The translations under genes were made by a program, and so were the position numbers. Shown one piece after another: positions 11,242-19,576 of a stretch of 64,000 nucleotides of DNA (within the stretch, counting starts at the first letter, position 1; every line of letters starts with the position of its first letter). This DNA is from a virus (Duplodnaviria; Caudoviricetes), in the IMG/VR virus record IMGVR_UViG_3300014205_000182, positions 32,001-96,000 of that record. One strand, written 5' to 3'. The notes beneath the pieces are model-generated. The model searched no databases. It had not been told where the DNA came from and saw only the letters and a program-made list of their open reading frames with translations.

Positions 11242-12603
11242 TTAGGTAAGCTCCAGCATCATAGCGCGCTGAGAAGTGTTATCCAGAGCGGTCACCACGA
11301 GCGCATCGCACGCAGCGATCCGGGCGAGGAAGGCGGAAACGGTATCGGCACCGAGCAGGGTAGCCAGACCATTGCACTCCGACCGCATACGCTCGATACG
11401 CTCGATAAGAGACGCGCCAGCGATACGCTTGAGATCGCCAGACTTGGCTTCGCAATCCTTCTCAAGCCGCGCCAGATCGGCGGTAAACGATTCCGTGAGC
11501 GCGCTTCCGATCGACTCGGTATCCATGTGCGACCAAGCGTAGATCCCACGTCCCATGATCGGCCGGAGGGCAACCACGAGATCGAGCGCGCGAGCGGCAT
11601 TGAACGGCTGAACGTAGATCCCGAGATCCGTGTCACGAGCGCCGTAGTGGTTCACGAGACACGCCATCACACGAGTCTGGAGATCGTCGGATGCGATCAG
11701 GGTATCGCGCACCCGGCGGTTAAAGTCAGCGAGGACCATACGCGCACCCTCGTGATCCGGAGCGTCACACTCGATAACGCCATCGTGCGAGAGGGTGATC
11801 AACGCCTCTTTCGCTCCGAGCGAATCGCTCGCGAGATCGTTATCGAAAAACCCGATCTTCCACGCGCTAGCGTACTTGCCAGCGGTAGGAGCGTTGCGGG
11901 CGACAAAGCCGCCATGGTTGAGGATCTGCGTCGCCTTTCCGAGCAGGCCGACGAGACCGGGTGCGCGGCCAAAGGCCTTCTCAGGCAATCCCAGAGTAAC
12001 GCGCACACTCTCGACGGATGCCCATTCGATCAGTGACTGGCGAGACTTGCCGGAGATCGAGTCAATGACCGTGCGAACCTTGCCAAAGGCGACGATGGTT
12101 CCCACGCCGCTAGCCAGCGTCGGATCAACCACTCGACCATTGTAACCGGCCTGCGTTGCGCCAGCGATGCGAGCCATCGCGGTCGCGGTCGCGATAGCGT
12201 CGGCTGACTGGCTACGAGTCTGCGAACCACCGCGACGGGTGCGGGCGGCACGCGCCGCAACATTCGCGGCACCCTCGTTCGCAACGTTCGTGAGCGCACC
12301 CGTGAGGGTAGACGCGTCAACCGTGCGGGCGATCTGAACGGGTGCAACGGGTGCGACCGGTCCCGGGATCGAATTCATGGTGATCACCATGCGCCGCGTT
12401 TGGCCGGCCAGCTTGACCACGGCACGATCCGACGGAGCGAGAGCAGAGTACACGCTACCAATGGCGCGGAAATCGTTGGAAACGCGGTCACAATCGGCCA
12501 TGGTCTGACAAGCGTTGACGAGCGCCAGACACTCAGAGAGCAGCGACGGGCGAAAAAGGTTGCCGAGGTTAGCGAGGGACATTCCGAGGATCGTGAGGGA
12601 CAT
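11242..12603 (-). CDS. Hypothetical 453-aa protein (putative pre-early)
   Basis: Long ORF with AAAGGA RBS, an upstream TTGACG-17-TAGGAT promoter and a downstream terminator. Confidence 0.8.
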   Translation of the reverse strand: MSLTILGMSLANLGNLFRPSLLSECLALVNACQTMADCDRVSNDFRAIGSVYSALAPSDRAVVKLAGQTRRMVITMNSIPGPVAPVAPVQIARTVDASTLTGALTNVANEGAANVAARAARTRRGGSQTRSQSADAIATATAMARIAGATQAGYNGRVVDPTLASGVGTIVAFGKVRTVIDSISGKSRQSLIEWASVESVRVTLGLPEKAFGRAPGLVGLLGKATQILNHGGFVARNAPTAGKYASAWKIGFFDNDLASDSLGAKEALITLSHDGVIECDAPDHEGARMVLADFNRRVRDTLIASDDLQTRVMACLVNHYGARDTDLGIYVQPFNAARALDLVVALRPIMGRGIYAWSHMDTESIGSALTESFTADLARLEKDCEAKSGDLKRIAGASLIERIERMRSECNGLATLLGADTVSAFLARIAACDALVVTALDNTSQRAMMLELT

Positions 12604-13165
12604 TTTGATTTCCTTTGTTCCGGGTTTCGAGTGGCAAGACCATCCTAGGGATCCTTGTTTCCCACGTCAAGCGCCTAAGAAACTATTTCGTGAGGATCCC
12701 TAGTTCCCTTTTGAAAACCGTGCGGATCTCGTCGACAACATCACAGGCCGGATGATTCGTTTGGAGCCATGCCAGGAATGCGATCCCTAATGTCGCGAAA
12801 CACGCGACCACATACAACCACATGAGGCGAGGATCCGGGATTGTCGCAACCACGGTAGGGTTTTTCCCCGGGCGAACGATCGCGCCATGCCAGGGATCGA
12901 GCCATACGACCACGGCACCCGGACGAACGGTGATTCGGTATGGTGTGCGGGTTTTCAGGACATGTGCGATTTCGTCGCGAGTCAAGATCCTACAGGACAA
13001 ATGGCACTCCACATGCGAGGAGGAAATGGTTGCGTTCCTGGCTAGTACACAAGTCATCCGCTAGCGCATGTGCGACATGGTACACACCGAGCAGGTAGGT
13101 CGGATCCTGACTTGTGCGTCGCGCGCGGTCAATCGCTCGCGCGAGATCGATTTGCTTACGGTTGA

Positions 13166-13330
13166 TCACATGTCACCCGTGGCGTAGCGGATTGCGTGAT
13201 CGAGCCGCACATGTAGCATCGGCCGACTCTGGAATGGATCGCAGATCCGGATTGCCTCGTCGAGTGTGACATGTGCGCCAGCGTAGTTGTTGTTCGTGTA
13301 GACGATACAGAGGGGATTACGCTTTTTCAT
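13166..13330 (-). CDS. Small leaderless ORF (54 aa, MKKRNPLCIVY...)
   Basis: Below the ORF-track cutoff; ATG lies 6 nt after a TACACT -10 box. Confidence 0.5.
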   Translation of the reverse strand: MKKRNPLCIVYTNNNYAGAHVTLDEAIRICDPFQSRPMLHVRLDHAIRYATGDM

Positions 13331-13764
13331 GTCTCCAGTGTAGGCATGTTTTCACTTCACTGGAAACCCTTTTGGGTTATGTGTGGGGTAGCGAATGATT
13401 TCAACAGGTTACACTCGAGCTCGCGATTTCAGCGACTTAGCCTGGCGAGATTCTTGCATTGGTCCGACCGGCTATTTTCCTGCGAATTCGGCAGGATTCT
13501 ACAGTGCCAAACTGGCAAACCTGCGGATTTGGCAGTTCACACTTTACTGTGAACGCCCGTTCATAGTTCAGCGTTATTTGTGTATCGAACCATACCAAAC
13601 AGAGCAGTTTGGGTAGCGTCGGGAAAATATCAGGTACTTAGAGTGTAGGGAATCGCGATCGGACCTAGGGTGTCACCTAGTGACGGGATTATTTTCGTTC
13701 AATGGTGGGCATTCTGTAGCGTCTGAACGAAGGTCCGTTTTTTAGTAAGATGGCACACTAGGAA

Positions 13765-14155
13765 TTCCCTACAGGACACAAATGTCGTGTCGCAGGGTAT
13801 CGGAGCACCCGGGGGTGGGTCCAAACGGACACGGGTCTACCTGGACCCGGATCACCGTGTCATATGATCCGTATGCCATGGGTTCTTTACCCGGGTATAA
13901 AACTACCCACCCGGGTGACACGATACCCTGGTATTTCGATCATATGACATTTCGATCCGGGTCTAAATGGACTCGGGTCCACCGAGACCCGGGTCTAAAT
14001 GGACCCGGACATTCTTGTCCTAGGATCGTAATGCCAGAGTAGATCTTTACCCGGGTGTCTGGTTACCCTGGCATTTGTGTCATAGGATCTAAATGTCATG
14101 TAGGCAAACCGGCGACCTGTACGTGTAGCAGCTTCCGTGCCAAACCGGGTCTACA
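13765..14155. repeat. Non-coding field of dispersed ACCCGGGT / CGGGTCTA / TGTCATA(T/G)GATC motifs
   Basis: Multiple copies on both strands; CCGGGTCTAAATGGAC is duplicated near 13957 and 13989. Confidence 0.6.
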
Positions 14156-14195
14156 TTCAAGTATTGTGCCAAATTCGCGAGCTCAAAATCGGATA

Positions 14196-14340
14196 CTGAA
14201 CACTTGTTCAGTGTGACATCAGGATCATACTGAACGGATGTTCAGGTACTGAACGGATGTTTAGGTACTGAACGGATGTTCAGGTACTGAACGGATGTTC
14301 AGGTACTGAACGGATGTTCAGGTACTGAACGGATGTTCAG
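14196..14340. promoter_or_regulatory. Array of seven LexA-box-like palindromes (CTGAAC-N4-GTTCAG)
   Basis: One copy at 14196 and six in 19-bp tandem at 14230, 14249, 14268, 14287, 14306 and 14325; fits the Myxococcus SOS box consensus. Confidence 0.75.
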
Positions 14341-14346
14341 TGGACA

Positions 14347-14362
14347 TGCAAGCTGCGTGCCA
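14347..14362 (-). promoter_or_regulatory. Consensus sigma-54 site pointing into the LexA-box array
   Basis: TGGCACGCAGCTTGCA on the minus strand. Confidence 0.65.
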
Positions 14363-14574
14363 GCGAGCGAGGGCGCGACGGGGCCGAGCGCGGATTTTCG
14401 CCCGGGAATCGCACGAAATTACCCACTACGCACTGCGTCACGCCTAGTAATTCCAAGGGTTTGAGCTCGCTAATTTCGAGCATTAGCGCACGAATTTCCG
14501 CCTATGGCACTCCGGGCGCCCGACGGTGCGAAACGCTCGCAAATCGAAGCCTATCGCGTCTGAGAGCAAATGAG

Positions 14575-14604
14575 AAAACCCGCCGGGATTTCTCCGGGCG
14601 GGTT
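14575..14604 (-). terminator. Intrinsic terminator
   Basis: AACCCGCC/GGCGGGTT stem with TTTT, downstream of 14626-14865. Confidence 0.65.
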
Positions 14605-15106
14605 AGGTCGCGCTAAGTAGCTGATTTAGTACCAGTAGACTCGCACCGAGTCATCCTCGAAAACCTCGTCGGAGATCGGTTCAGCGACGGAGATGTAACG
14701 AGTGTAACAACGCTTTCCATCGCGCACATGAGCCCAGATCTCCTCACACATGGCCATGTGTCCCGAGGTGGGAGCATTCTCGCGAATCCACACGAGACCG
14801 GCAGCGCACACGAGGGATAGCAGAGTGATTTCGAGGTTGTTGGTTTCCATTCCTCTTTGTCGCACGGAATACCCTACGGGGTCAATACCTTTTGTGCGCG
14901 ATCGTATGCCTCTGAATTGCTCTGCTCAAACTCGGCTTTGGTCGCGCCCATATTCCAGGGCAGTGCCCAACGGTTACGTGCGTTGAGTACCGGCGTACCG
15001 TCTTCGTCGCCACAAACCGCAACGATCGTTGCGACCGTAACCCAAGCGGTTGGAGTAGGGCAGGAATGCGATAGGAGCAGACTGATCGCCCACTGGCCTA
15101 GGATGT

Positions 15107-17169: not shown

Positions 17170-17611
17170 GTGCAGACCACACTACGCATTGCGGGGATCG
17201 CTGTCAAACGAAAAATCGCCTCCATGGCGAGCTCGAGCGCAACCTGCTGTAATCACTAGCGAATTACGATTGTGTCTTGACAGATCCCTGCGTCGTTTCC
17301 AGAGTGGATCGCACAATGGAAACGCAAAAAATGCTCGTCGAGATCACGATTCCGGCCGACATGTCAGACGGTGAATTGCTGGAGAAAATCCAGGAGCTTG
17401 CGCAGGAATGTGCAGAGGCTTTTTGGGAGGGAGACGAGGATTTCCCATCGACACTGGCAAGTGAAATTTCCGACTCGTGTACGGTAGTTTCTGAGGACAA
17501 CTGGGAGATCGTCTCGCGCGAGTAACTGATCCTTCGTTCAGTGGCTACTCGACCTTCCAGTGACGTGACAAGTAGTCACATACCCTGCCAGTGAAAACCA
17601 AAAGTTAGCTC

Positions 17612-18324: not shown

Positions 18325-18740
18325 GTGACCTCGGTTAGAAAAGTGACCTTGGTTGGAAAAGTGACCTTGGTTGGAAAAGTGACTCGCGCTAGAAATCTAA
18401 CAGTGACTCACGTTAGAAATCCAGCAGTGACTCGTGTTAGAAATCTCCCATGATTGCTCGCAATCGCGCAAGTGATTCATCGCAGCGTTTCTGCCAGGCG
18501 GTGAACCAGGTTAGAAAATCTTGGTCGGTCTGGATTCTGGTGATGGAAACCACTTCAATAGTTGTTGTAGTTCGCATGAGTGACTTTCGTTAGAAGTTTC
18601 AGGTGCTTTCAAACTTCATTGAAACTTTTAAAAGGTTTGAATGCTATGTAACAAAACGTTACTATTGCTGGGAAAATTGGATCAAATCAAGTACTTAGAC
18701 CTGCTCCAAAATGGAGCAGTTCGTGACCTCGGTTAGAAAT
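18325..18740 (+). repeat. Iteron-like direct repeats GTGAC-N4-GTTAGAAA
   Basis: Copies at 18325, 18343, 18361, 18379, 18403 and 18427, with outliers at 18501, 18580 and 18723 around an AT-rich tract. Confidence 0.8.
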
Positions 18741-19576
18741 TAGTCATCAGCGCTCGTATATCGTTTGGGCTCCCACTTCCTGCTAGAAGAGTTGTACTCC
18801 CAACCAAGATAGGTCATGTCGTTACGTAACACCTGCTGGATTTTCGTAGAACTGATGAACTTACCGTGATACGCAACTACTACATCCTGAAACTTCACCT
18901 GATAAATACCTGCTTTGATGTAGTCGGATAGAACTTTCGCAGTACGTTCTCGACGTAACTTAATCAAGTGAGGGGTGATGGATTTTATTGGAGTATTTCG
19001 TTCTGATGGTGTTTGGTAGTGCTTGTACGGTCTGCCTGTTAAGGTGTGTTTCTTCAACGGGTTCCAGCGCCAGACAGAGTGAATTGTCTTAGATTTTCCT
19101 GAGTCAGACTTCCTGTATTCCAGCATGGGGTACCAGTGAAGGCTATTTAGTAAAATCTCAGGTTCCATGTCCATGTACTGCTTTGGCCATGTACCTGCCC
19201 AGGCTTTCATCGTGAAGGCCGGATTAGCTTGTAGCCACGCTCTACGGTCGTGACCAGGGTTAGGGTCATGGTCGATTAGCACTGGAGTACCCTCCCAGTC
19301 GCTCCTAGTGACCGTGGTTCGATTTTTAGGGTCTGCCGCGTCGTAGTCCGCCACCCACTTCCAAATCTGCTCAGGCGTCAGCTTATCGACGCCCCAGGTC
19401 CACGCGTGCTCCGAAAGCTTGGCCAGGTCGTTGACCATCTCAGCCGTAGGATTATTAGACGACATTGCCAATTCTAAGGTACCTGTCGAGACACCTAGCG
19501 CTCTGGCTATGACAGGCACTGTCAGTTTGCCTTGACAGAAATGTTTGAGTAAGTGGAGTCCGAATGATTCAGTCAT
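18740..19576 (-). CDS. HTH-containing DNA-binding protein, candidate origin or repeat binder
   Basis: N-terminal XRE-like LTVPVIARALGVSTGTL; wing-like C-terminus; ends directly at the repeat array. Confidence 0.6.
   Translation of the reverse strand: MTESFGLHLLKHFCQGKLTVPVIARALGVSTGTLELAMSSNNPTAEMVNDLAKLSEHAWTWGVDKLTPEQIWKWVADYDAADPKNRTTVTRSDWEGTPVLIDHDPNPGHDRRAWLQANPAFTMKAWAGTWPKQYMDMEPEILLNSLHWYPMLEYRKSDSGKSKTIHSVWRWNPLKKHTLTGRPYKHYQTPSERNTPIKSITPHLIKLRRERTAKVLSDYIKAGIYQVKFQDVVVAYHGKFISSTKIQQVLRNDMTYLGWEYNSSSRKWEPKRYTSADD

Follow-up and report, generated by a model that had tools for sequence, protein, structure and literature searches.

A head-to-tail array of seven near-ideal palindromes lies in a non-coding gap of a large uncultured phage genome and begins at the predicted start of a consensus sigma-54 promoter. 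Judged by sequence, the identity of its boxes as LexA operators of the Myxococcota type is well supported. The phage probably senses or soaks up the LexA repressor of its host, and we give an even chance to the more specific proposal that host LexA of this type, bound to the array, would gate the leftward operon read from that promoter. The window that we analysed is a stretch of 64,000 nucleotides, bases 32001-96000 of the linear 143,724-base IMG/VR virus record IMGVR_UViG_3300014205_000182, which comes from a landfill metagenome and has a G+C content of 54.5% and an estimated completeness of 90%.

Two leftward gene blocks flank the array, and the non-coding gap that separates them (13331-14612) is 1.3 kb long. 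Read along the minus strand, the order is a promoter (P1), six units, a seventh box, two further promoter-like sites (P2 and P3), a repeat-rich leader and the ORFs of 54, 124 and 453 aa. The observed and predicted features of the region, in window coordinates, are:

14626-14865, minus strand: last gene of the upstream leftward operon (ORF list)
14572..14602, minus strand: terminator-like G+C hairpin with a T run, at the end of the upstream leftward operon (read by eye)
14347..14362, minus strand: P1, consensus sigma-54 -24/-12 promoter TGGCACG-CAGC-TTGCA (exact consensus match)
14323..14342, minus strand: candidate Operator 1, 20 bp, CA-CTGAAC-ATCC-GTTCAG-TA, over the predicted P1 start (flank score 10.7 bits)
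14228..14323, minus strand: candidate Operators 2-6, five 20-bp units AC-CTGAAC-ATCC-GTTCAG-TA with 1-bp overlaps (14.8 bits each)
14247-14266, minus strand: unit 5, the variant with CTAAAC (12.8 bits)
14194..14213, minus strand: candidate Operator 7, CA-CTGAAC-AAGT-GTTCAG-TA, 14 bp from the array (8.5 bits)
14157..14171, minus strand: P2, sigma-54-like TGGCAC-N5-TTGA, then ATGT (pattern match; -12 region as in the relative L107)
14128..14142, minus strand: P3, sigma-54-like TGGCAC-N5-CTGC (pattern match)
13550..13571, plus strand: additional weak sites within the leader, TGAAC-GCCC-GTTCA followed by GTTCAG (read from the sequence)
11242..13330, minus strand: leftward operon downstream of the array, three ORFs
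13166-13330, minus strand: 54-aa ORF of the downstream operon
12683-13057, minus strand: 124-aa ORF of the downstream operon
11242-12603, minus strand: 453-aa ORF of the downstream operon, conserved in relatives

A pattern search confirmed what the first-pass annotation had described, namely seven CTGAAC-N4-GTTCAG palindromes at 14194-14342, six of them with a 19-bp period. Perfect boxes start at 14196, 14230, 14268, 14287, 14306 and 14325, and a box with one mismatch (GTTTAG, which is CTAAAC on the minus strand) starts at 14249. Tandem Repeats Finder delimits the repeat to 14228-14340, with a period of 19, 5.9 copies and 97% matches. The TA that ends one unit and the AC that begins the next have their A in common, and the period is thus 19 bp because 20-bp operators overlap by one base. 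The lone core that had been annotated near 13551 is also present, as TGAAC-N4-GTTCA at 13550-13563. With up to one mismatch allowed, the window holds eight matches (the eighth at 17526) against 0.17 expected, a number reached by none of 100 shuffles. Across the whole 143,724-base record the perfect boxes are confined to the array, and 14 of the 102 copies of CTGAAC fall within a single 2-kb bin, at the array.

The repeat is present in the reads themselves, since contigs assembled independently from the source run end inside the array and repeat words stand at 4 to 6 times the flank depth. Indeed, two such words are found at 4.0x and 6.3x the flank depth in the source run, for 2.25x and 3.6x from the copies in the assembly. 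The proposed check of copy number in the reads gave a repeat-word depth (14273-14340) about 1.8 times that expected from the assembled copies; this hints, weakly, that more than six units are present or that their number varies in the population.

What would read these boxes? The M. xanthus LexA consensus to which they had been likened, CTRHAMRYBYGTTCAGS, is given as quoted in PMC9705874, which cites the original definition and reports gel-shift assays in which LexA of this species bound the lexA and recA2 boxes, with a weak shift for pafBC. The minus-strand unit fits this consensus at 16 of 17 positions, and the CTAAAC variant is consistent with it as well. The M. xanthus box has the same architecture: two halves 4 bp apart, of which GTTCAG is the strong one and CT..AC the weaker. 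However, GTTCAG is followed by G in M. xanthus and by TA in the phage and in most of the phylum, and natural Myxococcota boxes are imperfect and come one or two per promoter, whereas the phage carries seven near-ideal palindromes head to tail.

We built an operator model from the 160 nt upstream of lexA in the best 30 of the 196 lexA-bearing genomes among 201 Myxococcota genomes. GTTCAG occurs there in 25 of the 30, mostly as a pair of boxes that face the same way, at about -20 and -52. From 36 GTTCAG sites in these promoters we derived the consensus AC-CTGAAC-GCCC-GTTCAG-TA, with which the phage minus-strand unit agrees at 18 of 20 positions, the two that differ being in the spacer. Outside the palindrome arms, the model favors C before GTTCAG (frequency 0.67) and T (0.83) and A (0.70) after it, and the phage unit agrees at these three positions beyond the palindrome. 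We scored sites in bits over the 14 positions outside GTTCAG against this Myxococcota lexA-operator model; on this scale the array units reach 14.8 bits versus a mean of 7.3 (sd 4.8) for the real lexA operators, and the other 89 copies of GTTCAG in the phage average -7.5 bits with a maximum of 5.0.

The motif also marks recA, upstream of which GTTCAG is found in 13 of the 30 Myxococcota genomes versus about 4 expected, with a perfect CTGAAC-N4-GTTCAG in two. In the one control phylum tested, that of the proteobacterial MAG described below, GTTCAG is found in none of 21 lexA promoters, which carry CTGT-N8-ACAG or GTTC-N7-GTTC instead. Judged by these promoters, a GTTCAG-type motif behaves as a mark of the Myxococcota SOS regulon; counts of the perfect palindrome in five bacterial genomes were too low to inform. 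The identity proposed in the first-pass annotation, a Myxococcus-type LexA box, thus holds at the motif level through the 20-bp operator model, the recA promoters and the control phylum.

Three further sites were observed in the course of these scans. At 17524-17543 on the plus strand, in a 37-bp gap between two leftward ORFs and near a cluster of sigma-54 sites at 17.7-18.0 kb, AA-CTGATC-CTTC-GTTCAG-TG scores 5.0 bits, more than any other GTTCAG copy beyond the array; the upstream operon may thus have a LexA operator of its own, the eighth and natural-looking. In a Myxococcota MAG (L018:1597-1634), two boxes lie just upstream of a gene for an HTH-WYL-WCX (PafBC-like) regulator, in agreement with the weak LexA box at M. 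xanthus pafBC (PMC9705874). In another uncultured phage (L010:1219-1268, IMGVR_UViG_3300025141_000137), two AC-CTGAAC-GCCT-GTTCAG boxes stand 28 bp apart, and the second, which scores 13.8 bits on the Myxococcota lexA-operator model, runs into TATAAAT; this looks like a LexA-controlled sigma-70 promoter before a 205-aa ORF without a family.

The promoter next to the array was also as annotated, an exact match to the sigma-54 consensus at 14347-14362 on the minus strand. From its -12 GC at 14349-14348 the start is predicted at about 14337, within Operator 1 (14323-14342). P2, which begins 24 bp beyond the seventh box on the minus strand, and P3 are weaker than P1, with GA at -12 and CTGC, respectively. 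Sigma-54 sites with one mismatch are abundant in the window (23 versus 4.6 expected). A search of the whole phage record revealed neither a Sigma54_activat nor a Sigma54_DBD domain, so that both sigma-54 and the enhancer-binding AAA+ activator would have to come from the host. Upstream, the hairpin at 14572-14602 escaped the terminator scan because its stem is bulged. Downstream, the 453-aa protein has no match in Pfam, PHROG, NCBIfam, PDB sequences or Foldseek, and the proteins flanking the array have no family match. A protein atlas gave one weak lead for the 453-aa protein, the phage family DUF6744 (score 0.88; TM 0.50/0.65).

It had been noted that no repressor or integrase was visible in this stretch; domain searches of the complete record extend this to integrase, Peptidase_S24 and LexA DNA-binding domains, and likewise detect no ParB, tyrosine integrase or serine recombinase, although an XRE-type HTH gene does lie outside the window. 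We counted the lack of a LexA domain, an S24 peptidase, a ParB, an integrase and a sigma-54 activator in favor of a reading in which the LexA is that of the host.

The binding of LexA and the direction of control are what we infer from this arrangement. Seven putative high-affinity LexA operators, starting at the P1 start, fill about 150 bp of the initial transcribed region. In an undamaged cell, LexA dimers would coat the array and block open-complex formation or escape at P1, and the coated array would insulate P2 and P3. The operon would be released by RecA-stimulated cleavage of LexA, or when replicating phage DNA outnumbers LexA, and its release would also need a host enhancer-binding protein; the leftward operon so released would end in the conserved 453-aa phage protein. 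Operator 1 lies over the predicted P1 +1, the usual position of a repressor, which supports gating. Against it, seven consensus sites exceed the need of simple repression, and sigma-54 promoters require an activator ATPase that the phage does not encode. Given the number and quality of the sites, LexA sequestration is a possible and serious second role. We hold more tentatively, with a clearly minor share of our confidence, that the array serves a virulent phage as timer and decoy: LexA would silence the incoming DNA at the sigma-54 promoter, and the replicating array would titrate LexA, firing both the operon and, without any DNA damage, the host SOS response.

Two known systems give partial precedents. 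In group A colicin promoters, two overlapping LexA boxes lie downstream of the -10 box (PMC4675545), a precedent that supports gating: overlapping LexA operators are likewise placed at or just after the promoter, with tight repression. However, the colicin boxes are two, of the E. coli type, at sigma-70 promoters of plasmid toxin genes, whereas those of the phage are six plus one at a sigma-54 promoter. In the Bacillus thuringiensis phage GIL01, host LexA acts as the repressor on SOS boxes in a promoter also called P1, helped by gp7 (PMC4551915). GIL01 resembles our phage in lacking a cleavable repressor of its own and in having several host LexA boxes on a key promoter, but it is a small linear plasmid-phage of temperate lifestyle that carries a few boxes and has a co-repressor, whereas here the genome is 144 kb, no lysogeny genes were found, the boxes form a 19-bp tandem array and the promoters are of the sigma-54 type. 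Host LexA is known to act on the promoters of a few temperate phages, where the boxes number from one to a few, and our literature search turned up neither such arrays in phages nor LexA acting on sigma-54 phage promoters. If the gating proposal is true, seven near-ideal head-to-tail operators on a sigma-54 promoter, in a large phage without lysogeny genes, would represent a different use of the SOS repressor, possibly as a tight cooperative lock, as a replication-coupled timer or as a decoy that manipulates the DNA-damage response of the host.

Is the arrangement conserved? The 453-aa protein has about 10 homologues at 43-59% identity. A metagenome scan yielded six short contigs, of which only one, L107 (2,775 bp, 48.6% G+C), extends to the control region. 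It is syntenic with the phage region: on it lie homologues of the 78-aa gene and, at 35% identity, of the 453-aa gene, as well as the C-terminus of a phrog_2554-like gene (75% identity). The control regions of the phage and L107 were compared by eye, since the repeats scrambled the MAFFT alignment. In L107, the stretch from a terminator to the homologue of the 453-aa gene contains CTGAAC four times as direct repeats, spaced by 18, 13 and 18 bp, which abut a sigma-54-like promoter, TGGCAC-GGAGT-TTGAATGT. The -12 region TTGAATGT is common to L107 and P2, P1 differing by one base, and the seventh box of the phage (CTGAACAAGTG) corresponds to the promoter-proximal repeat CTGAACAAATG of L107. From this one partial relative, CTGAAC repeats beside a sigma-54-type promoter appear to be a conserved module of this phage group. 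The first box of L107, CTGCTC-GGAT-GTTCAG-TA, scores 5.4 bits on the lexA-operator model, and the other three retain only the strong half-site, at -6 to -8 bits. These three weak boxes weaken the LexA reading, though natural Myxococcota operators are asymmetric too. Moreover, the boxes of L107 lie upstream of the promoter, reaching -26, whereas at P1 they are downstream.

Scans of IMG/VR with the 453-aa protein, its alignment, the neighboring 295-aa protein and the terminase returned only distant or unrelated loci, and scans for the DNA pattern only unrelated elements or chance coding matches. Among cultured phages we found neither DNA matching the region nor a homologue of the 453-aa protein. 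Phages of many hosts carry the 295-aa protein (phrog_2554), which is therefore uninformative on the host.

The same palindrome occurs elsewhere. Two boxes within 30 bp were found at 88 loci in 185,579 species genomes, mostly of Actinomycetota. In six sampled loci (five Actinomycetota, one Spirochaetales), double boxes precede TetR genes encoding TetR_N plus TetR_C_25, and in Geomobilimonas a double box precedes an HlyD pump gene. The box pairs before the TetR_N plus TetR_C_25 genes (L014, L027, L032, L034, L037 and L060) are 20-24 bp apart. Box pair and TetR gene seem, across several orders of Actinomycetota, to form a conserved operator-regulator pair, the reader of which would be TetR or LexA. 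The TetR-linked boxes score from 0 to 11.5 bits on the Myxococcota lexA-operator model, which therefore favors LexA but is still compatible with other binders. The 16-bp palindrome of the Actinomycetota TetR operators is identical to that of the phage; it comes in pairs, at a distance of 20 to 24 bp, often with TA before CTGAAC. However, these operators are two boxes before the gene of the regulator itself, whereas the phage has no clear TetR and is full of sigma-54 sites.

Two phage contigs have iteron-like sets of five CTGAAC-N4-GTTCAG boxes (L009:12405-12626; L011:5675-5896), contained in an ORF for a 333-aa winged-helix protein that immediately precedes a DnaB helicase gene. This looks like a lambda-like origin, with iterons inside the initiator gene. 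Because operators of TetR genes and phage iterons use the same word, the palindrome alone has no specificity for LexA. In a proteobacterial MAG, near-identical double boxes (L054:564-609 and L091:4278-4323) precede the gene of a 206-aa Peptidase_S24 repressor, in which Pfam shows no LexA DNA-binding domain. The same MAG has a canonical lexA (L190) with an E. coli-type CTGT-N8-ACAG box; the 206-aa protein would thus be a second LexA-like repressor with another operator, perhaps on a mobile element.

These loci bear on who else might bind the array. The reader could be a phage-encoded regulator or a protein of the host, either a TetR-family repressor or an enhancer-binding protein for which the array would be the upstream activating sequence of P2 and P3; the resemblance to LexA boxes would then be convergent. 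We consider this unlikely, though some points are in its favor: double boxes stand before the six TetR genes and the Geomobilimonas pump gene, a 278-aa ORF 5 kb off (18740-19576, minus strand) has a weak N-terminal HTH (TetR_N E 0.04, 11.6 bits; HTH_23 E 0.01), and some 140 bp separate the array center from the P2 start downstream of it, a distance common for enhancers. The repeats of L107 are direct and upstream of the promoter, and two of its four keep the spacer ATCC although the proteins are only 35% identical; however, ATCC also fits the RYBY of the published LexA consensus, and boxes reaching -26 are too near the promoter for a looping enhancer. The phage has neither a sigma-54 activator nor a clear TetR. 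In favor of LexA, the unit also agrees with the lexA model outside the palindrome (C10, T17, A18), an agreement for which another binder would have no need. The array could also act chiefly at a distance: in replicating phage DNA, seven better-than-natural operators per genome would pull LexA off the host chromosome and turn on host SOS genes (RecA, repair, mutagenic polymerases) without damage, local control being secondary. The quality of the units (14.8 against a mean of 7.3 bits for real lexA operators) and their number, seven, whereas one or two repress a promoter, fit such a role, as do the near-identity of the units, which suggests recent amplification, the 1.8-fold excess of repeat words, which would make the array longer still, and the lack of lysogeny genes in the record. 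A pure sponge, however, would gain nothing from a position exactly at a promoter start, three of the only four sites in L107 are weak, and we found no precedent in the literature; as the main function of the array we consider it rather improbable.

Two other readings fare worse. Tandem 19-bp dyads in a repeat-rich, non-coding 1.3 kb resemble lambda-type iterons (dyad repeats of about 19 to 25 bp), and the boxes directly before the DnaB gene in L009 and L011 have the identical palindrome; the array could accordingly be imagined to serve replication (as an origin), partition (as a centromere) or packaging, with a phage initiator, a ParB-like protein or the small terminase as its binder. However, the iterons of lambda and L009 are in the initiator gene beside the helicase gene, whereas the array is intergenic, has no AT-rich flank and is far from replication genes. 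Indeed, no AT-rich element for unwinding is seen (A+T is 65% at most in any 40-bp window, and 52% and 41% in the flanks), the cumulative GC skew has its minimum at about 59 kb and its maximum at about 18 kb, neither at the array, and a PrimPol-helicase gene is found beside that minimum, at 55.4-58.0 kb. No ParB is encoded, and the terminase gene is 16 kb away, which makes a packaging site unlikely; we regard this whole group of functions as very improbable. A role in RNA seems to us barely credible, whether as six or seven hairpins in the P1 leader or as plus-strand GGA loops forming a CsrB/RsmZ-type sponge for CsrA. Folding is strong for either strand (-74.5 and -54.7 kcal/mol; z -9.1 and -7.7), the plus-strand loop GGAU resembles the CsrA motif, and the single variant retains a G-U pair only in the plus-strand RNA. 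But palindromes fold strongly by construction, the L107 repeats are unfolded (z +1.9 and +0.5), the loop of the seventh box differs, Rfam has no match on the array, and no plus-strand promoter or terminator brackets it.

If the array is indeed read by LexA, the host of this uncultured phage would be predicted among Myxococcota of moderate G+C. Myxococcota lexA loci span 47-72% G+C, and the 54.5% of the phage is within this range. The abundant sigma-54 sites would fit a host rich in sigma-54 without identifying one; Actinomycetota are not known to have sigma-54. Protein searches did not point to the phylum: the 453-aa family gave one marginal match only among 401 Myxococcota genomes, and terminase identity within a set of 201 such genomes did not exceed 37%, no closer than in phages of other hosts. 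The myxophages Mx4 and Mx8 have no such array. For the Myxococcota in general, the operator model AC-CTGAAC-N4-GTTCAG-TA can be reused.

The gap contains other repeated elements. A second motif, GAGCTCGC-(G/T)A-ATTT, is present in three copies (13417-13441, 14463-14487 and 14162-14187), one about 100 bp upstream of P1, one inverted over P2 and one in the leader; this motif could be the site of another factor, for example an enhancer-binding protein. Downstream of P2 and P3, the segment 13790-14100 holds many ACCCGGGT palindromes and long inverted repeats with arms of 33-55 nt; in L107 a CCCGGG pair instead makes the terminator hairpin of the upstream operon. On the plus strand, a short hairpin at 13725-13746 is followed by a run of six T, which suggests possible rightward transcription in the gap, ending before the array. 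Finally, two 151-nt contigs from a groundwater metagenome run of another study are identical in sequence to 12885-13161, in the operon downstream of the array, so that the same phage or a very near relative occurs outside the landfill sample.
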